A DNA stretch of 64,000 bases from Escherichia coli. Its GTDB lineage: Bacteria; Pseudomonadota; Gammaproteobacteria; Enterobacterales; Enterobacteriaceae. The position numbers were made by a program, and so were the translations under genes. The notes under the pieces are model-generated. The model had not been told where the DNA came from, made no database searches, and saw nothing but the letters and a program-made list of their open reading frames with translations. The DNA lies in assembly GCA_002099625.1 (NCBI GenBank), contig GCA_002099625.1_4857.1; one strand, written 5' to 3'. This document shows positions 11,246 through 61,319 of the stretch, one piece after another; position 1 is the stretch's first letter, and every line of letters starts with the position of its first letter.

Positions 11246-13194
11246 TATGCATCGTCTCCGTAGGTTAACACTGCATCATCACCGATGCATAAAACAGTTT
11301 CTTCATCCAGACTTGCCACAGCTTCTTTTTCATTAAACGCCGTGAATGTAAAGGTAGCCGTCCATGCCGGCGAATCGTCACTCATCGGTGCAATCAACGG
11401 CTCGTTTGTTGGTGTAATAACCCCTGTCGAGATGTCTTCACGTGACAAGTTTAAACCGCACAACTGGTTTACAACTGTCGCTAAATCAGCATAGGTGTCG
11501 CCGGGAGCTACAGTAACTAGTATCGGTCCTTGCGGGTCGATAATTTTATTAGCGACTAGACGGTCGTAATAGACGGTAACCTTCTTGCCGTTAGGTTTAC
11601 GTGCTTTTGCAATGTACGCTTGCGTGGTACGGGCACTTTCAACACCTAAGTCGATAGGCCCCACTCCGCTTATTACAATCTCGTCAGGCGATAATGACAA
11701 TCCGTTATCGTGATTAATTAACGCCACAACGAGGCCCTTGGAGTCTAATCTAAGGTCAGGTGTAAAACGATTAGGGGGACTGTATTTTGCATTCAGTGCA
11801 GGTTTATCAACTAACCAAAAGCCGCTTGGTACGCAGGCCAAAATCACCCAGGCGGTATTTGTTGTCGACGGCCAATTAGGTAAAGTGTCGTAAGTTGGGT
11901 CATCGCACGAATCGCGATAACCGTGTTCACCCAGGAGAACATCGATATTATTAATTAGTTCAATTGCCCTAGTATCGTTCCCTAATTGTCTTTCAAATAA
12001 GGCAACACCGGCAGTTCCTTCAACCCAAACGCCGTCGACCGCAGTCGGATAACCCAATTCAACCTTATAAGGTGTGTAACCGCTGCATTCGGACGTTACT
12101 GCTCGAAACTTTTCCATGTAGCTGTGACACTGCGAAGCCAGCTCCGGTTTGAACTTAGCGATAAACAATCCACCCCAGCTTGACTGGTCTAAAGCGGCAG
12201 CGTCGTCATCGACATCGGCTCTAACGCCTTGACGCAATCGACCCTCTTCTTCTATCCAAAACTTGTCTAAAATTAGATTGCCTAACTCTATCGCCTTCGC
12301 GGCGTAGCTATCAAATCCAACCCTTCCCAATATCTCGAATAAAAACCACAAATCAACACAATGTTCCAAGGCCGAGAACGGTGCTACATAATTTTCATCG
12401 AACGTTTGCGTACCATCGGGGTTTGTAATAAAGCGGCCTTTACCCCCGAGATATAAGCCGTATCTCCTATCGTTTACATCGCTAACACGGAATCCTTCAA
12501 CCCAACTGAGCGAAAGAGTGAGCTTACTCCTAACTTGACCAACTAAGGTGCCGTTTGGATATTTCTCTAGGTAAAAAGCAAGGGCGTATAATACCCATGC
12601 CACATTGCCCATCCGATAATAGTTACGTGGAGACTTGGCAGACAAACGATTTACATAAAACTTAATACCACCGTCTGTGTCCACTAAAGCACAAAGCCCT
12701 TTAACATATTTCTCAACGGCTCCGTGATCTATAGCCATTAGTGCTAAAGCTGCCACCGCCTGATCGTACGTGTAACATCGATCTTTCATTACCTTGATAA
12801 CATCAGGTTCGGCGTCGCTGGGCATTAAGTAACTGCGTATACATAGAGGAAATTCCAGGGTTGTAATCCACTCTCCAGTTGATATATTGATTAGTCTAAA
12901 CTGTTTAGCACCGGCCCACGTACGTTTAAAAGAAAACGCCCCTGAGGCATCAAGAGGGGCTTCACCTAGCAAATACTCCCCGGTGGTGTAAGCATACATT
13001 ACCACTTTGTGGTTTGTGGGGTTGGTAACGTTGCTTTTTCCCGTCACGACCCCGATATAATCGTAGTCTACATTCTGATCTACGGACAGACTTACACTCG
13101 GGTCGTAGACCTCAGGAAGATCCAAGGTTAGCATTGTCTCTGTAGTATATTCGACCAACTCAGCAAAGTTGCGGATTATAGGTTTCGTCGTCAC
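11245..13194 (-). CDS. glycosidase-like (alpha/alpha)6 toroid protein candidate
   Basis: Start reassigned to GTG at 13194 (SD GGAGG 5 nt upstream); the ORF track start at 13290 would read through the terminator at 13223..13250. Contains YDQAVAALAL-like motifs. Confidence 0.55.
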   Translation of the reverse strand: MTTKPIIRNFAELVEYTTETMLTLDLPEVYDPSVSLSVDQNVDYDYIGVVTGKSNVTNPTNHKVVMYAYTTGEYLLGEAPLDASGAFSFKRTWAGAKQFRLINISTGEWITTLEFPLCIRSYLMPSDAEPDVIKVMKDRCYTYDQAVAALALMAIDHGAVEKYVKGLCALVDTDGGIKFYVNRLSAKSPRNYYRMGNVAWVLYALAFYLEKYPNGTLVGQVRSKLTLSLSWVEGFRVSDVNDRRYGLYLGGKGRFITNPDGTQTFDENYVAPFSALEHCVDLWFLFEILGRVGFDSYAAKAIELGNLILDKFWIEEEGRLRQGVRADVDDDAAALDQSSWGGLFIAKFKPELASQCHSYMEKFRAVTSECSGYTPYKVELGYPTAVDGVWVEGTAGVALFERQLGNDTRAIELINNIDVLLGEHGYRDSCDDPTYDTLPNWPSTTNTAWVILACVPSGFWLVDKPALNAKYSPPNRFTPDLRLDSKGLVVALINHDNGLSLSPDEIVISGVGPIDLGVESARTTQAYIAKARKPNGKKVTVYYDRLVANKIIDPQGPILVTVAPGDTYADLATVVNQLCGLNLSREDISTGVITPTNEPLIAPMSDDSPAWTATFTFTAFNEKEAVASLDEETVLCIGDDAVLTYGDDA

Positions 13195-13207
13195 AATTTC
13201 CTCCAGA

Positions 13208-13252
13208 AACAAAAAAAAATAAGCTACCACACATATGATCGTGTGGTAGCCT
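13208..13252 (-). terminator. intrinsic terminator
   Basis: Stem gctaccacac/gtgtggtagc, T-run on minus strand; after stop of 13265..13660. Confidence 0.7.
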
Positions 13253-13264
13253 ACTCGTACGCTG

Positions 13265-13660
13265 TTAGTGCAGTGTAGCACTGTGCACAACAGTTAACCC
13301 GCGACGTTTGATCTCATCCGCGATGGATTGCAACAGCTTATCGTAACCCACCTTTACAAATTCAGGTAAGCCACGGTCAACCATCTCCATCTCGGTGATT
13401 TCTTCACGGAAAACTTGACAACAGCCTTCTAAATAACGTTTAGCTTCTGTCACGTCATCGACATACCGCGCATAACTCAGGGCGATCGCGTAACCTTCTG
13501 CAATAAACGCATACTTCATGAAGACTTCTGGGTCGAGTTCTTCAACTGCCACGTCTAGACGTGAAGCGGTCTGACGTACAGAGTTACGTAATGATTCAGA
13601 AAACAGTGTAGTCGTAACCATATCCTGATTAGGAACGGTTTTAGGCATAATCAATTTCAC
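13265..13660 (-). CDS. hypothetical protein
   Basis: 131-aa ORF. Confidence 0.5.
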   Translation of the reverse strand: MKLIMPKTVPNQDMVTTTLFSESLRNSVRQTASRLDVAVEELDPEVFMKYAFIAEGYAIALSYARYVDDVTEAKRYLEGCCQVFREEITEMEMVDRGLPEFVKVGYDKLLQSIADEIKRRGLTVVHSATLH

Positions 13661-19442: not shown

Positions 19443-19733
19443 TTACGCCGTTACCGGAACAGGGGTGATTAACAGCTCCCCTTCCACCTCACGTAACTGA
19501 TAACCGTGCATAACGTTGTAGGATTTAATGCCGTCGCGTTGTTTGGCTTTCGCGACGAGTTTTTCCAACACGCGGCTATGTGCACGAGTCATCTCTTCTT
19601 TCGAATAAACAACTTGGAGTACGTGCTGTTCGTCAATAACGGCACGGAACTGCAGTACATCACCGTCTTCAACGTTGTAAACGACTTCTTTAGACTTCGA
19701 CACTGTACGATTAATTTGCATTATTTTCTCCAT
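19443..19733 (-). CDS. hypothetical protein
   Basis: 96-aa ORF. Confidence 0.5.
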   Translation of the reverse strand: MEKIMQINRTVSKSKEVVYNVEDGDVLQFRAVIDEQHVLQVVYSKEEMTRAHSRVLEKLVAKAKQRDGIKSYNVMHGYQLREVEGELLITPVPVTA

Positions 19734-20523
19734 TAGTAGTTTTCAGGGCACGTCCGTAGACATAACTTTCGGGTAGCCAACCGTTTTCTAATAACCACAT
19801 TGCGGCAGGCCCCCCAGTATATTGGTGGTAGGTGTAAATCAGTTCATCCCCCACCGGTATTTCAGACTGGATACAGTGCATCAACAGCCCGAACTCCTCT
19901 CGGCTTAGAGTAACCACCCCTTCTGCGGTAAACCATCCACCGATAACCCAGCGATGCCCACGGTGCGAAAGCACTGTCAACTTGTAGCTATCAGCGTTTC
20001 GCCACGACATCAGCCTCCCGCCCGTAACGAGCGTTGAGTAGATAGAGCTTGTACCGTAAAGCATTCTAACCCAATCCAAGAACGCTTTCTTACTATCGAA
20101 CAACGAACTGACATCCCCACAGAAATCCTCATCGTGGCTAGGCACCGATGAATTAATTTTGCGGTAGTTTATCGTTTCGCAACAAAAGCCCATGCGAGCA
20201 TATTCGTCCCCTTCCGAACGAGTAAAATGCATCGCGTAGTTACACCCCGCTGAGCGGAGTAAAGCATCCGCAAGCGAGGTTAACTGGGCGTCTAAAGCAC
20301 GAACCATGTTGATAACTTCTAACATGTATCCGTGGTCCAGACAGAGCACGATCGCGTCAGGCGCAACCGTGTCCCGACTGAATACTTCAAAGATTCGGTA
20401 GTAAAGACGGCGTTCATCTTGTAACGTGGAAGGATCGATATCATTTAACAACGATAACGCTTTACGGTCTTCCAACCACGTTCGGTCCAGAATCCTCTCC
20501 GTGCGTTCGATAACTCTCAGCAT
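19711..20523 (-). CDS. hypothetical protein
   Basis: 270-aa ORF. Confidence 0.5.
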   Translation of the reverse strand: MLRVIERTERILDRTWLEDRKALSLLNDIDPSTLQDERRLYYRIFEVFSRDTVAPDAIVLCLDHGYMLEVINMVRALDAQLTSLADALLRSAGCNYAMHFTRSEGDEYARMGFCCETINYRKINSSVPSHDEDFCGDVSSLFDSKKAFLDWVRMLYGTSSIYSTLVTGGRLMSWRNADSYKLTVLSHRGHRWVIGGWFTAEGVVTLSREEFGLLMHCIQSEIPVGDELIYTYHQYTGGPAAMWLLENGWLPESYVYGRALKTTNGENNAN

Positions 20524-20532
20524 ATTCTCTCC

Positions 20533-21336
20533 TTACGCAAGGGTGTAGTGATGTGTGATTACACGATACTCCAACCCTTCGATAGAAGGAAACTCGTGCT
20601 CTATCGCAACGCCCATGTTGACCTTTTTACCTTTCTGTCCCGCCAAATGCAAAATAGCGTGGTAGTGTTTTAGAAACTCTACCGAGTAAGCAACCGGGTC
20701 AAAAGTTTGGCAGCAGAATTGCTCAGTAATGATGCTCTTCGGGAATTCCTTATAAAGCATTAATGAAAACGGTTTCTGGCCGTGCAACCCCACGAACGCA
20801 GAGACAAAACCATTTGCTAATTCACCCAACATCTCACGCGTTCCTGCGTCTTTTAGCGTAGGTCGCATTAGATAGCAAACATCCTGGGTTTGTTCTAATG
20901 ACAATGTCTCCAACGGGACAACCGATGGGTCTGACGTAAAACCGTATTTCGGACTGACAGTAATCTCCACACGCTTCGTTACAGCTTCGAACCCCAGGCG
21001 CTGGTATAGTGCTGCGTGCTCAGTGTCGTGCGGAAAGCAGGTAATATCGAGCATCTGCACTTCCAGGAGTCGCGTTAAACGCTTCCACTCGTGGAACAGG
21101 GGCTCGGAGAGCACGTGAAGCTCGTAGATGTAGTAAACAATACCTGAACGACATCCACGAAAATACATTTGCGCACGACCGCTATTGCTCAACACTAACC
21201 AATGATCGTCTTCTTGGTCTGCGACGGGTCGCAAATCTTGAATCCGTTCGCGGAGTTGCCCCAAGGTGGTCAACCGACCACTAAACTCTACGGTCAGGTC
21301 GTTTTTGTCCATACCGTATAGATTAAATAGTTGCAT
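20533..21336 (-). CDS. hypothetical protein, possible N-terminal acetyltransferase-like domain
   Basis: 267-aa ORF; weak GNAT-like C-terminal motif HAALYQRLGFE, no clear motif A. Confidence 0.4.
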   Translation of the reverse strand: MQLFNLYGMDKNDLTVEFSGRLTTLGQLRERIQDLRPVADQEDDHWLVLSNSGRAQMYFRGCRSGIVYYIYELHVLSEPLFHEWKRLTRLLEVQMLDITCFPHDTEHAALYQRLGFEAVTKRVEITVSPKYGFTSDPSVVPLETLSLEQTQDVCYLMRPTLKDAGTREMLGELANGFVSAFVGLHGQKPFSLMLYKEFPKSIITEQFCCQTFDPVAYSVEFLKHYHAILHLAGQKGKKVNMGVAIEHEFPSIEGLEYRVITHHYTLA

Positions 21337-21345
21337 GTTGGTACC

Positions 21346-22164
21346 TTATAAGGTGCCGATTAGCTCCGTCACCGCTTTACGCTTATTCGCATCCGCAGAC
21401 ATATATCGACCTACTTGAACTTCGCGCCAAGTAAAGCCGTAATAAATATCGCGTGTGAGTAACGTATCTGCGTTTGACAGAACGACCTTATTGCCATCGG
21501 CAGCTTGTTGTTTTAAAAGTTTCGCTAACTCGCGGTGGTCAGCTTGTGAAAATTCTTTGCTGTGATACTGCGCGTGTTTAGCCGTATCCGAAAGTGGGAT
21601 GTAGGGCGGGTCGGCGTATATCACAGCGTTAGATGGGCACTTATTTAGGATGTCGCGGAAGTCCGCGCAGAGCAGCTCGACGTTGGTTTCCGAACAACGT
21701 TTTGCCCACGCCAGAATTTCCTCTTCAGGGAAATAGACACCGTTCGGGTGTTGACCATAGGGCACGTTAAACCCACCCGACTGATTGTATCTGCACAAAC
21801 CATTGTAACCATGACGTGTAAGATACAGGAACATCGCGGCGCGCTGGAGATTAGGTTTCCCCGTGGTTGCTTCGCTGTTAAATCCCTCGCGTCGTTCCAT
21901 GTAGAGACCGCGGTCCGTCCCATTTGCAAAGAGCGCCTTTGCTTCCAGAATCAGCGCTTCCGGACGATCGCGCGCCATGGTCAGTAACTCGATTAAGTCC
22001 GGGTTCGTGTCGCCGAGAATATAGTTCGGGTATTTAGTGTTTAAAAACACTGACCCTGCGCCCACAAAAGGTTCAACGAAATACTCAGCATCCGGAAACA
22101 CCTGTAGCAGCTCGGGCAGTACACGACTCTTACCACCCATCCATTTTAAAATTGGTTTTATCAC
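21346..22164 (-). CDS. dam: DNA adenine methyltransferase (Dam-like, GATC-type)
   Basis: Motifs FVGAGSVFLNT (SAM binding), LYLTRHGYNGLCRYN and DPPY catalytic motif; 272 aa. Confidence 0.85.
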   Translation of the reverse strand: MIKPILKWMGGKSRVLPELLQVFPDAEYFVEPFVGAGSVFLNTKYPNYILGDTNPDLIELLTMARDRPEALILEAKALFANGTDRGLYMERREGFNSEATTGKPNLQRAAMFLYLTRHGYNGLCRYNQSGGFNVPYGQHPNGVYFPEEEILAWAKRCSETNVELLCADFRDILNKCPSNAVIYADPPYIPLSDTAKHAQYHSKEFSQADHRELAKLLKQQAADGNKVVLSNADTLLTRDIYYGFTWREVQVGRYMSADANKRKAVTELIGTL

Positions 22165-22167
22165 CCG

Positions 22168-23169
22168 TTAACATCCTCTCATGCCAGATTGAAACATATC
22201 ACTGATAGTCAGCCTGGTTGTAGTCTCCACCGGAATGCTAGGTTCTTCTTTCAGCACTCGATCGGCGCGGTTCCCATTCACCCGTTTCCAGCTAATAAGT
22301 TCAGGATCGCGTTTCAACGTTAGTGTACGCAGTACCTGCTTGCAACGTAAGATGTTACCGTACAGGTGATTTGCTGGATTATTATCAGCAGCTGTTTCAA
22401 TATAGACTTGGTCGGAATGACGTTGTGCGAAATCGAATAGCGCGCCCATTAGCCGGCGGCCAATGCCACGTTTACGGTGCGTGGGTGCAACGGTTAAACC
22501 AGAAAGTTCAACGACGCCTGGTGTAACCAAGCGCATCTGGGCAATACCGACGATATCATGGCCGTCTCGCCAAATTGCAGTCTCCACATTAGCGTGCTGA
22601 ATTCTTGCTATTACTGTTTCTGCTAACGGACCAATGTGTGTATAGTAGCCACGCATATCGTATTCTAGCTCTTCGCAAATTGCACCGCTAATCAAATTCA
22701 GGATAACGTCTTTATCTTCCTTGGTAAGTTCTGCGTATGCATCACCAGAAATAATCTTGATTTCTGATGCGGTGATTACTTTGTCAAACAGTTTAGAATG
22801 ACATGCCCAAACGATATCTGAAAGAACAAACCCTTTTTCGACCAGTTTTTGTTCAACATCGTCAGTAGGTGCTGGGCACGACATATATTCGAATCCGGTA
22901 TGGTCGAGCACAAGGGCCAAACCAACTTTATCGAATGCCCCAGGTACAAACTCCTCAAAATAGTGACAGGTTAGCGTAGGGTCACCGTGTCGATAGGTGG
23001 CCACTAAATAACCCTCCCAGGTTTCTTTATTCTTCACCACGTAAACAGAATAAGTCTCGTCCTTTAGAAACTCTTTTAGGCGGCGTGCTCGTACAGTATC
23101 GCTACCGACGTTATTTCGGAACTCGGCAGTGCGGATGCTGGTGCGAAACAATTTAGCCACAGTTTTCAT
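22168..23169 (-). CDS. GNAT-family acetyltransferase domain protein
   Basis: C-terminal motif A HRKRGIGRRLMGALFDF; start set at ATG 23169 (MKTVAKLF) so the ORF does not run through the terminator at 23221..23255. Confidence 0.5.
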   Translation of the reverse strand: MKTVAKLFRTSIRTAEFRNNVGSDTVRARRLKEFLKDETYSVYVVKNKETWEGYLVATYRHGDPTLTCHYFEEFVPGAFDKVGLALVLDHTGFEYMSCPAPTDDVEQKLVEKGFVLSDIVWACHSKLFDKVITASEIKIISGDAYAELTKEDKDVILNLISGAICEELEYDMRGYYTHIGPLAETVIARIQHANVETAIWRDGHDIVGIAQMRLVTPGVVELSGLTVAPTHRKRGIGRRLMGALFDFAQRHSDQVYIETAADNNPANHLYGNILRCKQVLRTLTLKRDPELISWKRVNGNRADRVLKEEPSIPVETTTRLTISDMFQSGMRGC

Positions 23170-23220
23170 TGTAATGCCCTCAAAAGGTATTGCTGTCACA
23201 ACATGAGGATAATGCGTAAA

Positions 23221-23255
23221 AAGACAAAAAATTAAGGGGTCCGAAGACCCCTTAA
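23221..23255 (-). terminator. intrinsic terminator
   Basis: Stem aaggggtc/gacccctt with cgaa loop, T-run on minus strand. Confidence 0.7.
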
Positions 23256-23258
23256 TGA

Positions 23259-23915
23259 TTACAGTTCCGGTTTGGAGACAAGCGTCGTCCAAGTTTCGGA
23301 ATGTTTGACACTGACGTGTGCTAGGCGATTCACCATGAACGCAAATTTGTCCATATGTTTCTGCACTTCGTTATCAGTCAGATTGCCAGCGATAACTTTA
23401 CCGTCTTTGGTCAGCACGATATAGCCGTGGTTGTTGTCTACCGTAGTGAACGCCACATCAATCGTAACCGGGTAAAGTTTCACCAGCGTCGGCAGAATGT
23501 GGCCAACACGATCGGCCATACCCGCAAGCTGGCCACAAAGGTCGGCTTTATCCTGCATGAACAAACGCAACATCGCTACTGCAAACACCGGATAGATGTT
23601 TTCGATTTGCGTGTCGTAACGAGACAGGCCGATAACTTCATCACCGCGGGTTAGCACCATGTTGTTCAGATGCGCTCCTTTATAGATGGTAAAGCGTACG
23701 TCGCTACCAAGGTTAACCGAAACGATTTCCTGACCAAGGTCAATCGGAAATTCACGTTCGATGTGAATCGTTTTCAGACGCTCACTGATCGGTACAATCA
23801 CATCCGGCTTCGGAATGCTAGATGTACGCGTGGATTCAGTAGTGCGCGTTTTTGTGGATTTAACCGCGCTGCTTGCCATTGAATCTTTTGCTACAGTTTT
23901 AGGGGCCTTCGCCAT
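23259..23915 (-). CDS. hypothetical protein
   Basis: 218-aa ORF with S/T-rich N-terminus. Confidence 0.5.
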   Translation of the reverse strand: MAKAPKTVAKDSMASSAVKSTKTRTTESTRTSSIPKPDVIVPISERLKTIHIEREFPIDLGQEIVSVNLGSDVRFTIYKGAHLNNMVLTRGDEVIGLSRYDTQIENIYPVFAVAMLRLFMQDKADLCGQLAGMADRVGHILPTLVKLYPVTIDVAFTTVDNNHGYIVLTKDGKVIAGNLTDNEVQKHMDKFAFMVNRLAHVSVKHSETWTTLVSKPEL

Positions 23916-23941
23916 GGTATACTCCTTAAGGTTTACACTAG

Positions 23942-24328
23942 TTAATCCCAGAAAGCTGCTTCTGGAAAGTCGTGTTCAAATGCCCGACGGTCATTCTCTA
24001 CACGGTTTAAATGTGTCGGTAAAGACACGCAGTTATTACAGATACAAAGTTCTTTATCCCCTTGACTGGGGTCAAAGTCGTACCATTTCCATTCAACGGT
24101 ATCTCGTTTCGGGAAGGTACCTTTGCAGTCGTCGCAGACCACTTCTTCAGCTGCAATTTCAGCCTGCAGTTTTTCCCAGCAGTTCTCGCACATGTAGTAC
24201 GTTTCGCGGCCCCATGGGTCGCACTCTGCCGTATAACGTGGAGCTATAGAGCCCACTTTAAGATGTTTACATCGTTCATCCTCTTCCGTCATCACGCGAC
24301 GGGTGATACCATTTACAAACCAATTCAT
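23942..24328 (-). CDS. Cys-rich putative zinc-binding protein
   Basis: Several CxxC pairs (CENCW, CDDCK, CICNNC) in 128 aa. Confidence 0.5.
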   Translation of the reverse strand: MNWFVNGITRRVMTEEDERCKHLKVGSIAPRYTAECDPWGRETYYMCENCWEKLQAEIAAEEVVCDDCKGTFPKRDTVEWKWYDFDPSQGDKELCICNNCVSLPTHLNRVENDRRAFEHDFPEAAFWD

Positions 24329-24339
24329 ACGTTTGCTCC

Positions 24340-24705
24340 CTACATCACTGCAGAAGGTTTACGTGCCATGACTTTAAGTCCCGTATCTCGTACCCGGATA
24401 GGACAATTATTCATGTAATCAATGCAGGATTCAATTTTGAAGCTGTGTCGACATTTACCGTTGATGGAACGGTAGACGATTTCGTAATTCAGGCGCAGTG
24501 TATCGGCAACCCGCATTAACGTTTCAATAGTCACGGCCTTCTCACGTTCATTTTTAATCGCAGATATTTGTGACGGCGAGCAACCTACTAATAACGCAAC
24601 GTCTTTCTGCGTAACGTCCTTCGCAGTAACACGTGTAATAATGTAAGAAAGACGAACCAAAAACGCTTTCTTTGCCAACACAACTGTTTGATGTTTAAAA
24701 CGCAT
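24340..24705 (-). CDS. HTH (XRE/Cro-like) transcriptional regulator
   Basis: Helix-turn-helix signature TQKDVALLVGCSPSQISAIKN; first gene after class A promoter. Confidence 0.55.
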   Translation of the reverse strand: MRFKHQTVVLAKKAFLVRLSYIITRVTAKDVTQKDVALLVGCSPSQISAIKNEREKAVTIETLMRVADTLRLNYEIVYRSINGKCRHSFKIESCIDYMNNCPIRVRDTGLKVMARKPSAVM

Positions 24706-24821: not shown

Positions 24822-24866
24822 CTGTAAAAAAGGCAATACCCTCTTACCCGAAGGTAAGAGGGGGTA
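24822..24866 (-). terminator. intrinsic terminator
   Basis: Stem accctcttacc/ggtaagagggggt with cgaagg loop, T-run on minus strand. Confidence 0.75.
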
Positions 24867-24869
24867 CAA

Positions 24870-25493
24870 CTAACCTGCCAAAATTCGTTCAACGATACGG
24901 GCGGCCTGTAACGCCATATCGTCGTCTGCTGCGATTCGCATCAGTGGGAATTTATCACCACCGTCTGTAGTGATGTGGAACGCAAAACGGTAATGGTCGC
25001 GTAATGCGTCCCAATCGGTCTGTGAGCGCAGATACTTCGCTGTCAGTACCTCATCATCCCAGTTCTTACCTTGTGCTTCTACGCGCTTCTTAAAGCGTTC
25101 TGTGGCGGTTTCGTAAGATACATCGGTTGCCACGTAAAGCTTTGGTGCGTTAATGTGGTCTAATACCCGCGAACGGAAAACTTCCCCTTTACCATCTACG
25201 CCCTGGTAGACAATGGTCGATTGACAAAAACGGTCAAAAATAACGACATCGTGCTCTGGTACAACGAAGTCCATTGTATATTGGAAATCCAGACACATCG
25301 CTTTGGCAATACGTTCACTAGAGGCGTGCTGGATAACCAGAGAGCGTGCACTAATACCGGCTTCAGTGGTATTCGTCGGGTGATTGACGATGATGGCATT
25401 AACGCCAGCGGAGCGCAACATCGCTTGAATCATTTTAGCGAGTGTTGATTTGCCAGAAAAATCTGGACCATCCAGCGCCACTGAGTTTAACAT
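24870..25493 (-). CDS. tmk: thymidylate (dTMP) kinase-like P-loop kinase
   Basis: P-loop GPDFSGKST and DRF...YQG motif; start at ATG 25493. Confidence 0.6.
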   Translation of the reverse strand: MLNSVALDGPDFSGKSTLAKMIQAMLRSAGVNAIIVNHPTNTTEAGISARSLVIQHASSERIAKAMCLDFQYTMDFVVPEHDVVIFDRFCQSTIVYQGVDGKGEVFRSRVLDHINAPKLYVATDVSYETATERFKKRVEAQGKNWDDEVLTAKYLRSQTDWDALRDHYRFAFHITTDGGDKFPLMRIAADDDMALQAARIVERILAG

Positions 25494-25549: not shown

Positions 25550-25594
25550 ACGTAAAGAAAAAAAATAAAACAGGCACCCCGAAGGATGCCTGAC
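25550..25594 (-). terminator. intrinsic terminator
   Basis: Hairpin caggca..ccccgaagg..tgcctg with long A-run on plus strand (T-run on minus). Confidence 0.6.
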
Positions 25595-33920: not shown

Positions 33921-34493
33921 TTACTCTTTAGGTGCGGTAGTCTGTTGCTTCGCGTTGCTCTTATTCAGCTTATACTCAACGACTTTGGCACCAATGGCCA
34001 TCGAATTGTAAGCAAGCGTCTTAATCGGCCATGTAAAGAACACGGCCTGAGCAAACAAAGGTAAGAGCGCCACAATCAACACATCCGTCAATTCTTGCGG
34101 ATAGTGCAGGTGTGTATCCCAGGCCATTGCTGCGGAGACCAGTACGGTGGTAAGCACCAGTAAAGCGATAAGGACTTTCTGAGGACCTTTTAAATTCGGC
34201 CACAGGGTCAATAACGTTTCTTTGGCGAGCTTTTCATCCATACTCTCCACAGCTGCTTTCGCCTGCGATTCAAACGTCTTCGCCATATTCCCAACCTGTT
34301 CAAGAATCAGGGGGCGCAATGACGTAAGAATCACGTTAGCGGGTTTAGTAACATCAATTTCGACATCACTTCCCAAAGCGGTCTGAGCGGCTGCTTTTAG
34401 TCGGGTGCTCTCTTCCAGGCTTAATTTATTGGTGCCCGCCTGGATAAGAACATCCAACACATCCGTCGAGGCTTCTTGCAAAGACTGCGACAT
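33921..34493 (-). CDS. membrane protein with two predicted TM helices
   Basis: Hydrophobic segments LIALLVLTTVLVSAAMAW and VLIVALLPLFAQAVFFTW. Confidence 0.5.
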   Translation of the reverse strand: MSQSLQEASTDVLDVLIQAGTNKLSLEESTRLKAAAQTALGSDVEIDVTKPANVILTSLRPLILEQVGNMAKTFESQAKAAVESMDEKLAKETLLTLWPNLKGPQKVLIALLVLTTVLVSAAMAWDTHLHYPQELTDVLIVALLPLFAQAVFFTWPIKTLAYNSMAIGAKVVEYKLNKSNAKQQTTAPKE

Positions 34494-34495
34494 CG

Positions 34496-35146
34496 CTATT
34501 TCCTCCGGCGTCTTCCTTTCTGCTTACCGGCCTTAGCTTTAGGAACTTTAACCTTGGGCGGAAGGAGACTATTTAGGTTTAATAAGTTGACCCTGACGAA
34601 GATATTACCCACCGCCACGGCATCGATACTGTGTTCATCCAATACCGATAAGTCGCACCGGGTATGGTTCGCGTAGAGTTTGGTCACCGCTTGTTGCATA
34701 TGCGATTTATCTGTACCCTTTGCTTCCACACCAACGTACGACTTCACAATAATAGGATTAAACCCATGGAGATATTTTTCGGGAAACACGTCCCAAAGCG
34801 TTCGCCGCAACATCAGTTGCAATTCCACCCCAGATTCGTACGCTGAGAGCTTAGCTCTTCGCATGAACGGAGTTTCGGTAGCGACAAAAGTCGGCCTTGC
34901 CAGTTTTAAAAACTCACGAAAGCGTTCTTCTAATTCTACCAAACGCGCATCGCGTTTCCCTACGCACTCACCAAAAGAGCCATTGTGCGTAGGGTCCGCA
35001 ACATGAGCCGTGCCCGCCCAGACAACTTCACCTTGAGGTTGGCCAAATTCCCAGTCGATAACCGCCATCCCAAGATGGGCAGTACCGGGGTCAACAGCCG
35101 CAATCCTCACCATACTGTCGGGTAACCTCGGCTCAGGAATCAGCAT
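34496..35146 (-). CDS. RuvC-like Holliday junction resolvase
   Basis: IAAVDPGTAHLGMAV (catalytic Asp region), ATETPF and DAVAVG motifs; basic C-terminal tail; start may be ATG 35113. Confidence 0.55.
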   Translation of the reverse strand: MLIPEPRLPDSMVRIAAVDPGTAHLGMAVIDWEFGQPQGEVVWAGTAHVADPTHNGSFGECVGKRDARLVELEERFREFLKLARPTFVATETPFMRRAKLSAYESGVELQLMLRRTLWDVFPEKYLHGFNPIIVKSYVGVEAKGTDKSHMQQAVTKLYANHTRCDLSVLDEHSIDAVAVGNIFVRVNLLNLNSLLPPKVKVPKAKAGKQKGRRRRK

Positions 35147-36033
35147 CAGTTAGCTGTCCCTAAAAACCACGGTGCCGGCTGGCCGATACGGATGGTCAGT
35201 GACAGACGATCGTTGGTCTGTGCCAGGTTAGTGAACAGGGAGATGTAGTACAACGCCTGCACACCGATAGCTTCGTCGTAGCTGAACTGTGAACCGGTAG
35301 CCGACTCACCCGTTTCAGGGGTATCAACGCCAGAGCACAGCGCAATTTCAGAGATAATCGAACTGCGTGGCGTACCACGTAGAATCGCCGTCACGTTCAT
35401 GTATTCCTGAACATCAAACTCAGTCCATGGAATCACCAGGTCCGCGCCCGATTCAACATAACGACCGTCGGGGATCTCTACAGTGCCGTCATCGTCGTAA
35501 TCGTAGTCTGGGAGTTCTTTCGGTACCGGGTTCAGTTCCGCATCGGTATAGACGAAATCTTTGACGGTTTCAACACCGTTTTCGCGAGTGATATCCAGGT
35601 CAGTGGTCTTCACTGCGCGCATGTCGATACGTTTCAGATAATACGCCCAGTAATCCCGCGCGCCGATAGTTTCACGAGTACGGAAAGCGTACTGTTTACG
35701 TTGCTCATCAGATAAGTCATTATCCAATGTACGCAGTACCAATGGAACGCGCGAGAACATCCCTGACGTAATCGGGGATTTCGCGACAGGAACAACGTCT
35801 GCCACAACATCAGACTGATCAACGATGTGACCACGGTTACCCACGCACATGTATCCTAAATGCGGACGTGTAGCGCCATCGGGAACTTTCGAGGTCATGA
35901 GTTTATAAAACTCGTTCATCGTGGATTTCTGTGGGTACTGCACGTCAGCACCTGTCAATAACGCGGTCGTAAGTCGCATCGCGTTAAGAGTCACTGTTGA
36001 CAGTTTACCGTCGTAAACTTTGGTGTTAGCCAT
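35146..36033 (-). CDS. hypothetical protein, possible virion protein
   Basis: 295-aa ORF. Confidence 0.5.
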   Translation of the reverse strand: MANTKVYDGKLSTVTLNAMRLTTALLTGADVQYPQKSTMNEFYKLMTSKVPDGATRPHLGYMCVGNRGHIVDQSDVVADVVPVAKSPITSGMFSRVPLVLRTLDNDLSDEQRKQYAFRTRETIGARDYWAYYLKRIDMRAVKTTDLDITRENGVETVKDFVYTDAELNPVPKELPDYDYDDDGTVEIPDGRYVESGADLVIPWTEFDVQEYMNVTAILRGTPRSSIISEIALCSGVDTPETGESATGSQFSYDEAIGVQALYYISLFTNLAQTNDRLSLTIRIGQPAPWFLGTAN

Positions 36034-36553
36034 TTAAAAATTCTCCTGGGCGAAACCCGTCGAGTGCCCGTTTAGTTACCAGCTGCGCCAGCTTACGGGG
36101 AGTTGGGTCAACAAAAGTAATCGCAATCGTGCCTTTGAAAGATAGATGGTGCGGGATTAAGCGCGCCTCATACGATTCCATTTCCGGGGTAATCGGTTCA
36201 ACCATGATATCGTAGGTGTCAAGCTGGAGACCCAGCTCATCGACAATATACGGAACTAATTCATGGCTCCATTCTGCCGCACCCTTCGGGACTTCAACCG
36301 TTACGTCTTTAAGTAACTTGTTTAAGTCCGCACGAGTCAGGTAAAACTCTTGGGTGCCGTGTACCCCATTTACAAAGCGCGCCGCAACTTTAGACTCCAC
36401 ACCTTTAGCGCGTCGCTCTGCTTGGGTTAACGGCCACACCCCACGTGGGTTAAACTCGTAGTTATTTTCACTATACGATAACTTAAAAACGTAATTGATT
36501 CTCTCAACCAGAATCTGTTTCGGGGTTTTTGATAAATCTATACGGTATCCCAT
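36026..36553 (-). CDS. hypothetical protein
   Basis: 175-aa ORF. Confidence 0.5.
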   Translation of the reverse strand: MGYRIDLSKTPKQILVERINYVFKLSYSENNYEFNPRGVWPLTQAERRAKGVESKVAARFVNGVHGTQEFYLTRADLNKLLKDVTVEVPKGAAEWSHELVPYIVDELGLQLDTYDIMVEPITPEMESYEARLIPHHLSFKGTIAITFVDPTPRKLAQLVTKRALDGFRPGEFLNG

Positions 36554-36560
36554 AAGTCTC

Positions 36561-38744
36561 TCACTTTGGTAATTGGTCTAGCCGGAAGCCATCCATGTCA
36601 CGGTCGGCCACGCGCTCGGCAAGCGTCCACTCCTCAAATGACGTCCGCACACGGATAACATCAATAGGCGGCTGTACCATATCGATCACAACATCCTGCT
36701 CGACCTTCACGCGGATACCAGGGTAGACATTCATCCGCAACTTAATACGTTGCGGGATTGCCATTTCCTTTATCACGGGAGCGACAGGGATGGGCTTATC
36801 CGTCGTCATGAATGAACTACGGCTCACACGCTGCACGTCTGTCAGAGGGTAAATGATATTTGTTGTATCGGCAGCCTCTGCGAGAATATCATCCAGAATC
36901 GGGATGACTGGGTCGGTGACATCGTAGGTGTCAGAACCCATACGTGCGGCAAAATGGACAGTGTACGACGAGAGTTTCGTCATTAACCGCACCATCGCGC
37001 GTTGTATTTCAGCTTGTGAGACAGACGCACGTGTTTCCAGATTAGTGGCCACGTTTAAAGCGTCGGTGGCGATGTCCTGCCAGGTTTCCGCGGAGACTAA
37101 CTCGTAATCAAAACCAAACGTTTTGAAGAACTCGTCGTAATCGCGGTAAGGTAGGTCAAGATCGCACTTATAGTCACGGTAATGGTAGGTAAACAGCATT
37201 GTGCCGGCAGCACGGTCGGCTAGCTTGTGTCGATTATACGAGTAACGGTAACGACGACGCTTCTGCACCATGATTTCGCTGATTTCATCGTACAGCTCAT
37301 CTGCAGACATCAAATTGCCGATAACTTCATGATGCGTGTCCGTGTAATAGTTAATCAACGCATTAAAACGGCCGGGCCATGAGCTTGGCAGATGCTGCTC
37401 CATCTCATCAAAACCAACCCAGCGTTTGATTAGCACACCAAACACGTTCCACACCGGGATTTTATCCAGTGCTACACCCGAATAACCTTTGAAGCTCGCA
37501 TACAAGAACAGTGCCAGCAGCTCTTTTGAAGTGAGCTTTAGCGTGTCCCCGTTCGTTGGGTTAAGAATTTCGTGGTAAATGTTGTACTGTCCACGTGCCA
37601 CGATATGCATCCACTCGTTGAACAAGCCATGCATAAATTCCCAACGTTCGATGGCCTCTGGGTCAATCGCCGTTACCTCAACTAACTTCGTTGGCAGGTT
37701 CGGATACTGCGTCAAGCTCAAACGCCGATCGAGGTCTTCCTGATAGTCAGGTTCGTGCACTGGGTTATTGTACGCCAGATTGATTTCTTTCTGGATGATG
37801 TCAGTTGTGCTAACAATGTCCAGGTCACGACCCGAGTCACGTTCAGTATAGTTAAGCGATGACTGGTAGCCGATCGGGAGAGGTGTCAGGTCATCATCAC
37901 TGCCCGTCGTCGGGTCGTGAATCTGCTGGGCGACCTTATATCCAACAGCAGGCATACCCCAACCCGTCAGCAGGGTGTCAATCATCCAGGTAAAGATTTC
38001 TTCCTTACCAGAGTTACGTTCCCAGTAACGGATGTTGCGATACAGTGTGAATTTCTGCTTGAGGGTCAGGTACGGCATGAACTCGTGCAGTTCTTGGTGC
38101 GAAGCCAAGAACTCGGTCACGTAGTAGGAGTGCGTTTCGGTCGTAAACTGTAACCGTTTGCGGATGTACATGATAAGCCCCGGCCACACCGGGTACTGCT
38201 GCATGTAAAAGGCCAGTACGAAACAGTCGTTGTGAACTTTCCAGCCATCGGCCATGAACCGCACATGTGCCGCACGAATAAAGTTCTCAATATGTGTAAT
38301 TAACGACGTCTCCTGCGGTTCAACTAAAGCAGGATCGTAATACAAAATTGAGCAGTCATCGACACGTATCGCGTATGCAATATCAATCGGATTGAAAGTG
38401 CCTCGAATATATACTGCGTAGTCCGGATACTCGGCGATTAAGTCGTCGATATACTCCGGGTTAGAACGATATACGTTTGAGGTCTTTTTATGACGGGAGA
38501 GGTTCTGCGTCGTTAACTCTATCTGCTCTTGCGTGTCGAGTGACGTAATGTATATCGGCTTGTCGATTGCATGTCGTTTACCTGCTAAGTGTAGGTAATA
38601 CCGCCACGTCTCACGGTTCTCGGAAACGAAACCGCCGTTTTTGGTTATTGCCAGGTTCATCTGTTGTGCGATGCTCTCTGATTTGACAATCAGGGATTTC
38701 GCTAACTGGATAGCCTGGTCACGAAAAATGTTAAATCTCTGCAT
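36561..38744 (-). CDS. large hypothetical protein, possible virion protein
   Basis: Start at ATG 38744 (MQRFNIF); head-to-head with plus gene starting at 38756. Confidence 0.55.
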   Translation of the reverse strand: MQRFNIFRDQAIQLAKSLIVKSESIAQQMNLAITKNGGFVSENRETWRYYLHLAGKRHAIDKPIYITSLDTQEQIELTTQNLSRHKKTSNVYRSNPEYIDDLIAEYPDYAVYIRGTFNPIDIAYAIRVDDCSILYYDPALVEPQETSLITHIENFIRAAHVRFMADGWKVHNDCFVLAFYMQQYPVWPGLIMYIRKRLQFTTETHSYYVTEFLASHQELHEFMPYLTLKQKFTLYRNIRYWERNSGKEEIFTWMIDTLLTGWGMPAVGYKVAQQIHDPTTGSDDDLTPLPIGYQSSLNYTERDSGRDLDIVSTTDIIQKEINLAYNNPVHEPDYQEDLDRRLSLTQYPNLPTKLVEVTAIDPEAIERWEFMHGLFNEWMHIVARGQYNIYHEILNPTNGDTLKLTSKELLALFLYASFKGYSGVALDKIPVWNVFGVLIKRWVGFDEMEQHLPSSWPGRFNALINYYTDTHHEVIGNLMSADELYDEISEIMVQKRRRYRYSYNRHKLADRAAGTMLFTYHYRDYKCDLDLPYRDYDEFFKTFGFDYELVSAETWQDIATDALNVATNLETRASVSQAEIQRAMVRLMTKLSSYTVHFAARMGSDTYDVTDPVIPILDDILAEAADTTNIIYPLTDVQRVSRSSFMTTDKPIPVAPVIKEMAIPQRIKLRMNVYPGIRVKVEQDVVIDMVQPPIDVIRVRTSFEEWTLAERVADRDMDGFRLDQLPK

Positions 38745-38755
38745 CGGAGACCCCA

Positions 38756-41500
38756 ATGGAAGATATTAGTAAATTAACGGGCGACCCCGCGGTAGCTGCC
38801 ATACTGCGTAAGTCCACGAGCCCGTCGGCTCAGCAGCAACGCGGTAAGCGTGAAGATGGCGGCGTTACACCAACCCGTACAGAACTCACGGGCATTGCGA
38901 GTAGCCGCATTCGCACCGTTAAAAATGCCGAACGTATCTTTGATGCGCTCCCTGAGTTAGAGGTCATTGTTACCATCGCGACCTCCTCACTCCTGTCCAC
39001 AAAAGATTTGATTAACACCACGCTGATTTACGACAACGTGGCTGATATCCCGATCGACCTGCGTCAACAGTTGTTGGAACCTGTGCGTGAATTCCATGAC
39101 CACACGCGCCAGTTACCCAACAAACTGTATCAGTGGATTTACGATGCACTGAAATCCAAAGGCGCGAGCCCGGTGTTGCTGATTTCAGATACCGGATTCG
39201 ATGAACTCTTCGGCTTAAAGCCGTCTGTTGCAACCGAATCGTTGCGCCGTAGCCAATCTGACTTCTTTGAACGTCAGTTGGGTATCCTGGGCAAGATTGG
39301 CGGTGAAAACAAACCGAAGGTTGGTGTAGAAAGTATTCTGGGCCGTGCACGTGGCGCTGACAAGCCCACCAAGCCACAAACCATTAAACTTAACTTTGCA
39401 GCAGCCCCTAACAGTCCGTTTAAAGCAGACGGTATGTTAGCTTCCCTGGATATCGTTATCACCGACAACCCGCGTATTACCCTGCTACCAGAGGCTTATC
39501 GCCGTGTGGCACAGGAGAATGCTCGCACCGGCCTGTTCGGTCAGTTAGAGCAGTACGCATATGAACAACCTTCTACGCCGACAGGTGCGTCAGAGTATAA
39601 CGCTGACCAGTTCACAGACAGTGAACAAGAGAAGGCAAAACTCGGTTTAATCAACATCGGCGACCTCAACGAAGCGTACCAGAAAACGCCTGAGCAAAAG
39701 CTTTACGGCGAAGTACCGAAGATGAGTTTCTCCGATGCCAACAAAATCGAATACACGGAACGATTACTGCCAGCAGAGTCCACACTCCCGCTCGTTATCG
39801 GCGACGATGTTCGTAACCCCATAGGTTATCTGGCCATCGTTGACGAAATGGGTAACTTCATTAACTCGCGCTCCACACTTTACGGTGATGCGAACTTCAT
39901 GAACTACCTGAACAACGACGGTATGGTGGATTCAACAATCAACCGTGCGAATCTGGGGATGGGCAACACAACCCGAATCACACCAGACATTGCTAACCGC
40001 TTAACAGCGCGTTATGGTGAAATTGCTGAAGACCAGCTAACCAAAGCTCTGGGTGAGGCGTTGGGTGGTGCTGAGATTAGCATGACAGTAACCGAAACGT
40101 TCAGCCGTATCATGCTGGCGCGCCATCTGGCAAAACGTCATACGCAGGTTATCTATATTCCTGCGGAAAACCTTTGCTATTTTGCCACGGACTTTGATGA
40201 AGATGGTATCGGTGTATCTATTACCGAACGCTCGTTCGTTATCTCTACTGTCCGTATGGCGCTGTTGTTCGCTACCATGAACTCTGCGGTGTTGAACTCT
40301 GCACGTCACATGCAGTACGACATTGAGTTGGCACCAGATGACATGAACGGTCAGAAAACAATTGACCAGCTGAAAACAGACATCATGAACTCCTATAACC
40401 GTCGTCAACCGATGTGGGGGGACATGAACGACACCTGGGCAATGACGACAAACGCAGGTATTGCGTTTAACGTTATTGGTAACGACTACTACGGTAGTAC
40501 CAAAGTGTCTGTGTCGGACACTACGCCGGATTATAAATACCCGGATAAGGATTTCGACGAAGGTCTGTTACGACGTACTTGTCACATCGCAGGTGTTGAC
40601 CCTGACCTGGTAATGACCCCCGAGAACATCGAGTTTGCTTCACAGATCTTCTCTAAATCGTTACTGGTCACCCAGCAGGTTGTTAAGAAGCAAGAGATTC
40701 TCTCTAAGCCACTGACACGTTACGTAGTTAATGGGATGTTGGCCTCTCCGTCGTTGCAATCAGCGATGATTAAAATCATTGCAGAGTACATCAATGCTAA
40801 CGGCAATGGGATGACTACTGACCAGATTACGAAAAAGGTCTCTGAGTATCTGGCTGCGTTTATCAACGGTATGAAAGTAACCTTACCACCGCCAGACACC
40901 TCTGCAGCAGCTTCGCAGATGGAGCTGTTCGATAAACGTACGGAGTTCTTTGAGAAGCTGGCTGATCTGGTTGTAACGGATGACATTGCTGCGCAACTCC
41001 AGCAAGAAGGTATCTCGATGGACCCGAACGATCTGAAGACGATGATCAAATCCTTCTATACGCGCAACTGGCTGCGTAAACAAGGTATTGAAACCGACTT
41101 CTTCGATCTGGTTTACGACGATGATTCTCGTCAGGACAACATCACCATGATGACTGATGAAGCGATGGCTGCTTCGAAAACGCTGATTCAATTGGCGAAA
41201 CGTTTCACCGGGCGACTGGAAACGTTAGCGAAGAATGCCGACCTTGATCCTAACGATGCTTCCGGCGGATTCGGTGGTGGTTTTGATGCGGGCGGTGACA
41301 CCGGCGGTGGTGATGGGGATCTCGGCGGTGGGGGTGACGATGATTTAGACCTCGATCTCGATACGGATAACGGCACCGGTGGTGATAGTACAGAGGAAAC
41401 TACTGAGTCGACCGAAACCACGGAAACAACTACCGAGGGAACGGAAGGCACAGAAGGCGGTGAAGGAACTACCGACGACAACCCAGACAACGTCCTCTAA
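38756..41500 (+). CDS. large virion-associated protein, portal-like candidate
   Basis: Continuous 914-aa plus-strand ORF while minus frames are fragmented; C-terminal Gly/Asp/Thr/Glu low-complexity tail; portal assignment is speculative. Confidence 0.55.
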   Translation: MEDISKLTGDPAVAAILRKSTSPSAQQQRGKREDGGVTPTRTELTGIASSRIRTVKNAERIFDALPELEVIVTIATSSLLSTKDLINTTLIYDNVADIPIDLRQQLLEPVREFHDHTRQLPNKLYQWIYDALKSKGASPVLLISDTGFDELFGLKPSVATESLRRSQSDFFERQLGILGKIGGENKPKVGVESILGRARGADKPTKPQTIKLNFAAAPNSPFKADGMLASLDIVITDNPRITLLPEAYRRVAQENARTGLFGQLEQYAYEQPSTPTGASEYNADQFTDSEQEKAKLGLINIGDLNEAYQKTPEQKLYGEVPKMSFSDANKIEYTERLLPAESTLPLVIGDDVRNPIGYLAIVDEMGNFINSRSTLYGDANFMNYLNNDGMVDSTINRANLGMGNTTRITPDIANRLTARYGEIAEDQLTKALGEALGGAEISMTVTETFSRIMLARHLAKRHTQVIYIPAENLCYFATDFDEDGIGVSITERSFVISTVRMALLFATMNSAVLNSARHMQYDIELAPDDMNGQKTIDQLKTDIMNSYNRRQPMWGDMNDTWAMTTNAGIAFNVIGNDYYGSTKVSVSDTTPDYKYPDKDFDEGLLRRTCHIAGVDPDLVMTPENIEFASQIFSKSLLVTQQVVKKQEILSKPLTRYVVNGMLASPSLQSAMIKIIAEYINANGNGMTTDQITKKVSEYLAAFINGMKVTLPPPDTSAAASQMELFDKRTEFFEKLADLVVTDDIAAQLQQEGISMDPNDLKTMIKSFYTRNWLRKQGIETDFFDLVYDDDSRQDNITMMTDEAMAASKTLIQLAKRFTGRLETLAKNADLDPNDASGGFGGGFDAGGDTGGGDGDLGGGGDDDLDLDLDTDNGTGGDSTEETTESTETTETTTEGTEGTEGGEGTTDDNPDNVL

Positions 41501-60767: not shown

Positions 60768-61319
60768 TTAAACTCCAGCGATACGATTTAAAATTTGATA
60801 CGTCCAACGGTGCGTGTGTTTCTGGCCGTCGGGTAAATGGGTCATGGTGTAGTCGACTTGAAAAACATCTCTGTCGATTTCTGGGAAGAAAGCATCGGCA
60901 CCTTCAACAGCGATGTCAATACGCGATAGATAGATACGATCCACTCGAGCGAGGGTTTGATGATAAATTGATGCGCCACCAATAATCATCACCTCTTGCT
61001 CTTTCCCGGTATCTTTCTCAATACGTTCCAGAGCTTTGATAGCTAAGTCAATACTCGTGTGATACGTCACCAAACGCATGTCCGTGTGTTCTTCCCGGCC
61101 ACTAATATAAGCTTCTGGGTTACGAGTAACGATTAAGTTACCGCGGTTAGGCAAAGGACGACAACCTAACGATTCCCAGGTCTTACTACCCATGATAACG
61201 TTCTTCCCTGTGGTAATTGCCTTAAAGTTAGCCAGGTCGGCAGGCAGACGCCACGGCAGTTCATTGTTTTTACCGATGGCATTGTTGCGGTCCATCGCGA
61301 CGATAATAGAGAGTTTCAC
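60768..61319 (-). CDS. dihydrofolate reductase
   Basis: Strong similarity to bacterial FolA signatures: IVAMDRNNAIGKNNELPW, LPADLANFK, VIMGSKTWESLG, MIIGGASIY; 183 aa. Confidence 0.85.
   Translation of the reverse strand: MKLSIIVAMDRNNAIGKNNELPWRLPADLANFKAITTGKNVIMGSKTWESLGCRPLPNRGNLIVTRNPEAYISGREEHTDMRLVTYHTSIDLAIKALERIEKDTGKEQEVMIIGGASIYHQTLARVDRIYLSRIDIAVEGADAFFPEIDRDVFQVDYTMTHLPDGQKHTHRWTYQILNRIAGV

Follow-up and report, generated by a model that had tools for sequence, protein, structure and literature searches.

A nucleus-forming jumbo phage closely related to Salmonella phage SPN3US carries, in the stretch of DNA analysed here (64 kb, hereafter the window), a gene for a Dam-family adenine methyltransferase. 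Our preferred explanation, which we regard as probable, is that this is a functional orphan Dam that methylates GATC sites of progeny DNA and so shields that DNA at the next infection. Both the gene and this interpretation are already known, because gp105 has carried its annotation ever since deposition of the SPN3US genome, and a 2019 paper by Thanki et al. (PMC6614189) listed Dam, dihydrofolate reductase (DHFR), thymidylate synthase and thymidylate kinase (tmk) for these phages with a matching anti-restriction reading. The point as put in the sequence-only reading carries little weight: Dam homologues are common in phages (1,244 phage records have them) and the gene has long been annotated. 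Our analysis adds (i) a gradient of GATC avoidance in nucleus-forming phages and (ii) probable start-codon errors in the SPN3US Dam and DHFR reference annotation. A Dam in a phage family thought to need little DNA modification, together with graded GATC avoidance, provides a simple experimental handle on whether host nucleases ever reach chimallivirus DNA and on whether host Dam is kept out of the phage nucleus.

A megablast search with positions 20000–24000 returned 34 phage records, 23 of them matching at full length with ∼94–98.5% identity; the top matches are Salmonella phages 1252 and SPN3US, Proteus phage 7 and the SPFM series. The window corresponds to ∼55–119 kb of the Salmonella jumbo phage SPN3US genome in reversed orientation, with DNA that is 97–98.5% identical and like gene neighbours around Dam. 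SPN3US is the type species of Seoulvirus in the family Chimalliviridae (nucleus-forming jumbo phages). Its methylase is named SPN3US_0105 or gp105, 'putative DNA adenine methylase' (AEP83938.1/YP_009153399.1), and its tmk is SPN3US_0100. Literature matches to the name 'gp105' concern the chimallin of phage 201phi2-1 and not the SPN3US Dam. The window Dam shares 98.9% protein identity with SPN3US gp105 and 98.9–99.6% with orthologues in SPN3US, SPFM, SEGD1, Proteus phage 7 and others, and the gene is kept in more than 50 genomes.

In the literature on SPN3US-like phages we found annotation statements and reviews only, and no experiments on Dam methylation, expression or localization. DNA-modification genes are few in Chimalliviridae generally, and reviews suggest that those present may guard the DNA shortly after entry (PMC7824862; PMC13282480); Iyer 2021 suggested that such enzymes protect DNA 'immediately after invasion'.

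The Dam gene and its start codon

The gene at 21346..22164 (minus strand, GTG start, 272 aa) had been read as a Dam-family N6-adenine methyltransferase with a DPPY motif, and profile searches and motif alignment bear this out. The D12-class profile PF02086 matches with an E-value of 1.3e-53 and 182.7 bits (GA 22), residues 8–251 covering profile positions 1–249 of 253, and the TIGR00571 'dam' model reaches 255.6 bits, where its cutoff is 114.85. Three motifs, all on the minus strand, align with E. coli Dam: (i) the AdoMet-binding motif I FVGAG (residues 33–37, 22054..22068), which aligns with FVGAG of E. coli Dam; (ii) the DNA-recognition beta-hairpin HGYNGLCRYNQSGGFNVPYGQH (residues 118–139, 21748..21813); and (iii) the catalytic motif IV DPPY (residues 185–188, 21601..21612), which aligns with the DPPY of E. 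coli Dam. They follow the alpha-class order, in which the AdoMet region comes first and the target-recognition region precedes the catalytic one.

Among solved structures, the window Dam matches E. coli Dam (2G1P, 4e-57), DpnM (1e-40) and T4 Dam (4e-10). A T4-Dam lineage was rejected on the last value as against the first. Recent capture of a host dam gene was also rejected, given 41% identity to E. coli Dam over 260 columns and a score of 242.2 bits on the host-type Dam equivalog (NF008152/PRK10904), which is below its cutoff of 441. The protein is a diverged family member and not a recent copy of a host gene.

The GTG start at 22164 is preceded, 9 nt upstream, by a Shine–Dalgarno (SD) sequence AGAGGA (22174..22179, minus strand), and it retains the conserved N-terminus LKWxGGK. 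The SPN3US RefSeq record begins the protein (264 aa) at an internal ATG (22140), 24 nt downstream of the GTG, which has no SD and loses K7 and W8 of LKWxGGK. The phiEaH2 and Machina records annotate the long form, and tblastn alignments begin at residue 1–2 in all relatives. A similar situation is seen for DHFR, whose GTG start at 61319 has an AGGAG SD 6 nt upstream and gives a full-length domain, while the RefSeq ATG lies 24 nt downstream. The SPN3US RefSeq starts of Dam and DHFR are thus probably truncated, and the coordinates given for both genes in the sequence-only reading are better than the RefSeq starts.

The gene is found at the equivalent locus in Seoulvirus, Erskinevirus (phiEaH2, 69.5% amino acid identity) and Machinavirus with related Erwinia phages (53–55%). 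Its dN/dS against SPN3US is 0.15. Against phiEaH2 and Machina, pN is 0.22–0.32 and pS is 0.80–0.93; since synonymous sites are saturated at this distance, these values can be read only as pN far below pS and not as a dN/dS ratio. Dam is under purifying selection, with vertical, syntenic retention in the three genera.

GATC avoidance and the proposed role of methylation

The window contains 121 GATC sites, about 1 per 530 bp, against ∼305 expected under a second-order Markov model. GATC is the most depleted of the 256 tetranucleotides (observed/expected ratio, O/E, 0.395; z = −20.7), while the most enriched are GATG/CATC and GATA/TATC (1.31–1.33). Synonymous codon shuffling within 81 genes gives 249 ± 12 GATC sites against 118 observed (z = −10.8). 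Such avoidance is classical in enterobacteriophages, where it has been put down to MutH and Dam (McClelland 1984; Deschavanne & Radman 1991, via PMC5014478).

We then compared GATC O/E among related phages. The lowest values are those of the Dam-less sister genus, i.e. 0.11 in Phobos (no Dam in the syntenic 50-kb piece) and 0.17 in CR5 (50-kb piece and whole genome; no Dam genome-wide); the presence of Dam was checked across the whole genome for CR5 only, and in the 50-kb piece for Phobos. Dam-positive phages have higher values: 0.26 in phiEaH2 and 0.27 in Machina (syntenic 50 kb each), 0.41 in SPN3US (34.6 kb) and 0.40 in the window (64 kb). Goslar, which has an E. coli host, reaches 0.68 (30 kb), and 201phi2-1, which has a Pseudomonas host, reaches 0.95 (30 kb). 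Avoidance is thus stronger in the Dam-less sister genus (0.11–0.17) than in the Dam-positive genera and is absent in the Pseudomonas relative. Weaker avoidance in Dam-positive genera is what would be expected if Dam partly protects GATC sites. The gradient is suggestive only, because it amounts to effectively one phylogenetic contrast (three genera versus one). We did not find a description elsewhere of GATC avoidance graded with Dam presence in nucleus-forming phages in a non-exhaustive search.

How these observations could fit together is as follows. The phage Dam would use AdoMet to methylate GATC at N6 of its adenine. The shell of the phage nucleus is known to exclude restriction enzymes (reviewed in PMC12707154), and Chimalliviridae would replicate within this protein shell, out of reach of host enzymes; host Dam would then probably be unable to reach the replicating phage DNA. 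The phage Dam, assuming that it is imported into the phage nucleus, would methylate progeny genomes at ∼1 GATC per 530 bp, and the packaged DNA may then resist methylation-sensitive GATC nucleases (MboI/DpnII-type restriction enzymes and MutH) at the next infection, before a shell has formed. Genome-wide GATC avoidance would work alongside methylation. Methylation appears not to be the phage's sole answer to GATC-directed pressure, and perhaps not its main one, because the phage keeps only ∼40% of the expected sites; the still stronger avoidance in the sister genus without Dam suggests that Dam would relieve this pressure only partly.

There is a counterpoint. If the DNA were protected at every stage by the early vesicle and the shell, both methylation and GATC avoidance should be needless, and the existence of Dam and of avoidance would be left without explanation. 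A more specific and tentative reading, to which we give a rather low probability, is that, in Dam-positive hosts, a GATC-directed host factor reaches chimallivirus DNA at some stage in spite of vesicle and shell, and that the bacterial-type Dam of the SPN3US lineage (possibly acquired together with the co-inherited gp101, gp102 and gp106) is imported, replaces the excluded host Dam and partly relaxes the pressure. The evidence for it is the series of GATC O/E values, from 0.11–0.17 in Dam-less and 0.26–0.40 in Dam-positive phages to 0.68 in Goslar and 0.95 in the Pseudomonas relative.

The distribution of GATC sites also bears on an alternative in which Dam methylation serves regulation within the phage, and not defence. 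In oriC/SeqA-type systems, Dam-methylated GATC clusters time replication. In phage P1, Dam-methylated GATC clusters in pac license packaging (cited in PMC12707154), which provides a precedent, and the otherwise GATC-poor genome does contain local clusters: 7 sites in 394 bp at 40964–41357, 8 sites at 12726–13487 and others in the major head gene. However, all of these clusters are coding and only three of the 121 sites fall outside the ORF-based gene set. None of the clusters is positionally conserved outside Seoulvirus; that at 40964–41357 is shared only with the near-identical SPN3US and is not kept in position in Dam-positive Machina or phiEaH2. Clusters resembling P1 pac or an origin were therefore rejected, and the suggestion that methylation controls packaging or replication found no conserved GATC cluster in Dam-positive relatives to build on. 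Moreover, the Dam-less sister genus, which has a like architecture, packages and replicates its DNA without Dam. Internal regulation of this kind is unlikely.

Recognition residues and possible targets of the enzyme

E. coli Dam recognizes GATC through R124, which reads the guanine in the fourth base pair, through an intercalating Y119 and a hydrogen-bonding N120, and through L122 and P134, which touch the neighbouring base pair (PMC4417163). Six of the seven GATC-reading residues are kept in the window Dam: K7, Y120, N121, L123, R125 and P135 correspond to K9, Y119, N120, L122, R124 and P134 of E. coli Dam, while Y138 is replaced by His139. Because these six residues match, GATC specificity is a strong inference for the window Dam. 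GATC N6-adenine methylation is the activity to be expected, since the predicted enzyme is intact and catalytically complete, keeps these residues and is under purifying selection.

The seventh position leaves room for a relaxed or different specificity (e.g. GATN, ATC or many adenines), in which case GATC scarcity would be irrelevant to the true targets. Y138 makes the first-base-pair contact in E. coli Dam and is His in the window Dam, which could loosen the reading of the first G; R137 of E. coli Dam is also replaced, by Gln in the alignment, and the first-base-pair contact is known not to be conserved across the Dam family (PMC4417163). Against this, the residues that specify base pairs three and four (L122, P134 and R124), as well as Y119/N120 and K9, are all kept, the orthologue in phiEaH2 carries Tyr where E. 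coli Dam has Y138, and the nearest characterized relatives are all GATC enzymes. We thus consider an altered target to be quite unlikely.

Another possibility is that the enzyme is aimed chiefly at the host, at its DNA or its processes, over-methylation upsetting mismatch repair, SeqA sequestration or Dam-regulated genes. If it were not imported into the phage nucleus, Dam would meet host DNA only, and over-expression of Dam is mutagenic in E. coli, as discussed in PMC5014478. However, because Salmonella, Erwinia and other such hosts have a Dam of their own, an additional Dam would find few substrates there beyond transient hemimethylated sites. The weaker GATC avoidance in Dam-positive phages also fits action on phage DNA better, which makes a host target improbable.

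Gene neighbourhood and comparison with known systems

The interval between tmk and gp108, both of them conserved, differs between Dam-positive and Dam-less genera. In Dam-positive genera it contains Dam, gp106, the HTH gene gp101 and the Cys-rich gp102, and variably gp103, a GNAT gene and gp107, and the order tmk–HTH–…–Dam–gp106 is kept. In Derbicusvirus (CR5 and Phobos) it contains two GNAT genes and one gene with no assigned function. In the window, a GNAT acetyltransferase gene (SPN3US gp104; 22168..23169, minus strand; PF00583, 3e-14) precedes Dam, and the two are probably co-transcribed because the GNAT stop codon lies only 3 nt ahead of the Dam start. A GNAT gene also adjoins Dam in Machina, and none lies beside it in phiEaH2. 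The Xre-type HTH gene gp101 (24340..24705, minus strand; PF01381, 9e-8) co-occurs with Dam in the Dam-positive genera, i.e. it is present in phiEaH2 and Machina, and it is missing both in CR5, genome-wide, and in the piece of Phobos. In each of the three Dam-positive genera the gene that directly follows Dam is gp106 (20533..21336, minus strand; phrog_9941), which has no Pfam or PADLOC match and is missing from CR5.

This arrangement raises the possibility that Dam is the methylase half of a phage restriction–modification or exclusion module, with gp106, gp107 or gp102 as its partner and the HTH protein gp101 as controller. The immediate position of gp106 and the joint occurrence of gp101, gp102, Dam and gp106 (together in 3/3 Dam-positive genera, jointly absent from the CR5 genome) agree with it. 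However, no Pfam or PADLOC model of a nuclease, restriction enzyme or defence partner matches gp102, gp103, gp106 or gp107. Searches against Pfam (E ≤ 10), PHROGs and PADLOC gave no function for gp103, gp106 and gp107, a sub-threshold PADLOC match of gp103 to LmuC (E 0.005) aside, and weak zinc-ribbon hints only for gp102. GNAT-like 'LYxxxGF' motifs occur in gp106 as well as in gp107, and their syntenic counterparts in CR5 encode GNATs, while hhalign comparisons of the two with the GNAT family and CR5_101 give probabilities of 3–13%. A deep homology search with gp106 recovered 10 SPN3US-like proteins only, and the AlphaFold model built on this shallow 10-protein alignment has a pLDDT of 40. 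Terminator-like hairpins also lie between the HTH gene and the Dam unit, and Dam itself finds its best PADLOC match in an orphan methyltransferase model (281 bits). With no nuclease partner in Pfam, PHROGs or PADLOC and an orphan model as the best match, Dam is most reasonably seen as a solitary enzyme, though with some slight doubt, and a restriction–modification module is very unlikely.

Although Chimalliviridae are generally poor in DNA-modification genes (PMC7824862; PMC13282480), it is hardly credible that the gene is an inactive relic of horizontal acquisition, given its intact reading frame, its complete catalytic and cofactor motifs, pN far below pS across three genera and its retention in more than 50 genomes. 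In brief, the data favour none of the rivals to a functional orphan Dam that methylates progeny DNA, be it regulation within the phage, relaxed specificity, a host target, a restriction–modification module or a relic.

The methylase had also been described as encoded together with tmk (24870..25493) and DHFR (60768..61319). Both gene calls are right. The tmk gene (SPN3US gp100; minus strand, 207 aa) encodes a P-loop kinase of the thymidylate kinase family, with an E-value of 6.8e-16 and 58.9 bits on PF02223 (GA 27), the P-loop GPDFSGKST and a DRF motif. It scores 46.5 bits on the TIGR00041 equivalog, under the cutoff of 83.25, and is a divergent family member with a putative substrate. Its ATG start at 25493 has an SD-like context (GGGGAAGA), while the GTG further upstream, at 25577, falls within a hairpin. 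The DHFR gene (minus strand, 183 aa, GTG start) matches PF00186 with an E-value of 3.4e-47 and 160.5 bits (GA 25), residues 3–179 aligning with profile positions 2–159 of 159, and lies under the type 3 DHFR equivalog cutoff (121.6 versus 168).

'Encoded together' is correct at the level of the genome, where Dam, tmk and DHFR are all on the minus strand, but not in the sense of a module. Four genes and two terminator-like hairpins separate Dam from tmk, which is located 2.7 kb upstream, and DHFR is 39 kb from Dam, amid structural genes. Three hairpins with a TTCG loop and a T-run, all minus-strand pattern matches, occur upstream of tmk (25571..25592), directly downstream of it (24839..24862) and upstream of the GNAT–Dam unit (23231..23256). 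Because such hairpins, as pattern matches, bracket tmk, this gene looks monocistronic, and GNAT–Dam–gp106–gp107 looks like a separate unit. A scan for sigma-70 promoters near Dam gave fewer matches than in shuffled sequences and is uninformative, because the phage transcribes with its own RNA polymerases. Cronobacter phage CR5 has tmk (1.7e-36) and an annotated thymidylate synthase, and neither Dam nor DHFR was found in its whole 224-kb genome; no thymidylate synthase was found in the 64-kb window. Adjacency, co-transcription and co-inheritance thus all speak against a single operon or module of Dam, tmk and DHFR. With separate units and independent presence or absence (CR5 keeps tmk alone of the three), they are independent accessories, tmk and DHFR being nucleotide-supply genes outside any Dam module. 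The latter two are compatible with the idea that the phage boosts its dTTP supply, which is already in the literature (PMC6614189).

The closest known systems are SPN3US gp105 and its orthologues, with which the window shares the gene, its neighbours and the interpretation; only the annotated start differs (264 aa versus 272 aa). The chromosomal Dam of E. coli and Salmonella (2G1P; NF008152) has the same alpha-class motif order, FxGxG and DPPY, a full-length alignment (4e-57) and a near-identical recognition hairpin (GYNGLCRYN…FNVP), with K9, Y119, N120, L122, R124 and P134 kept. It differs from the phage enzyme in that identity is 41%, the phage score is under the equivalog cutoff, and Y138 and R137 have become His and Gln in the phage; also, the window Dam comes from a lytic nucleus-forming phage, with no MutH/SeqA partner system implied. 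Phage T4 Dam (1YFJ/1Q0T), the type of the 'T4-like DAM' clade that is said to be the commonest in jumbo phages (PMC7824862), is likewise a solitary phage GATC adenine methylase of the same Pfam family, and its role in vivo is likewise unclear (PMC12707154). It is, however, distant (4e-10, ∼26% identity over a partial alignment), and the window Dam groups with bacterial Dam and DpnM and not with the T4 lineage. DpnM (M.DpnII, 2DPM; 1e-40) shares the family and the GATC specificity class with the window Dam but has a cognate endonuclease, while none is detectable beside the phage Dam with Pfam and PADLOC. Finally, the GATC avoidance described here resembles that of other enterobacteriophages in being a strong and specific under-representation in phages of Dam-positive, MutH-positive hosts; it differs in that these are nucleus-forming phages with their own Dam, among which avoidance is graded by the presence of Dam.

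Variable interval between tmk and gp108

The Dam gene (window 21346–22164, minus strand) lies in a variable interval (window 19711–24705, minus strand; 34110–36712 in CR5, L005; 34681–37242 in Phobos, L007) with conserved flanks, tmk (24870–25493, minus strand) and gp108. The interval contains an Xre-type HTH gene (gp101), Cys-rich gp102, Dam and gp106 in the Dam-positive genera (i.e. Seoulvirus, Erskinevirus and Machinavirus), whereas two GNAT genes and one unknown gene occur in place of this Dam block in Derbicusvirus (CR5 and Phobos). None of gp101, gp102, Dam and gp106 was found in the whole CR5 genome. The 128-aa gp102 (window 23942–24328, minus strand) contains multiple CxxC pairs and shows a faint similarity to zinc ribbons (PF18912, E 0.026), and its position next to the HTH gene is conserved throughout the Dam-positive genera. 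No family is detectable for gp106 and gp107; both bear GNAT-like ‘LYxxxGF’ motifs, and GNAT profile comparisons are weak (3–13% probability).

Strong minus-strand TTCG-tetraloop hairpins followed by T-runs are present before the GNAT-Dam unit (23231–23256) and on each side of tmk (24839–24862 and 25571–25592). These three hairpins look like a recurring putative terminator type in the phage.

Start codons of Dam and DHFR, and distribution of DHFR

Both the RefSeq and GenBank annotations of SPN3US start Dam (264 aa; L001 8141; window 22140–22164, minus strand) and DHFR (175 aa; L002 3663; window 61295–61319, minus strand) at internal ATG codons. Each gene has a GTG codon 24 nt upstream of the annotated ATG, with a good Shine–Dalgarno sequence (AGAGGA for Dam and AGGAG for DHFR). 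Starting at GTG regains the conserved N-terminus of Dam (LKWxGGK) and that of DHFR, i.e. its first beta-strand.

A tblastn search (E ≤ 1) with the DHFR region (window 60768–61319) found no homologue in the CR5 genome, despite the presence there of tmk and an annotated thymidylate synthase. This gene content indicates that DHFR is an accessory gene within this phage supercluster.

GATC depletion and local GATC-rich patches

Of all 256 tetranucleotides in window 1–64000, GATC has the lowest observed/expected (O/E) ratio, at 0.40, with a codon-shuffle z of −10.8; the strongest enrichment is that of GATG and GATA. Within this GATC-poor genome, there are local GATC-rich patches. One (40964–41357; seven sites in 394 bp) is at the 3′ end of the sole plus-strand virion gene nearby (38756–41500); it is common to the window and SPN3US, but absent from Machina, phiEaH2 and CR5. 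Another is the major head gene (47672–49969), in which GATC is abundant in all relatives and which holds 10 of the 160 genomic GATC sites of CR5.

Across relatives, GATC depletion forms a gradient: O/E is 0.11–0.17 in Dam-less Derbicusvirus (CR5, and the syntenic piece of Phobos), 0.26–0.40 in the Dam-positive genera, 0.68 in the E. coli phage Goslar and 0.95 in the Pseudomonas phage 201phi2-1.
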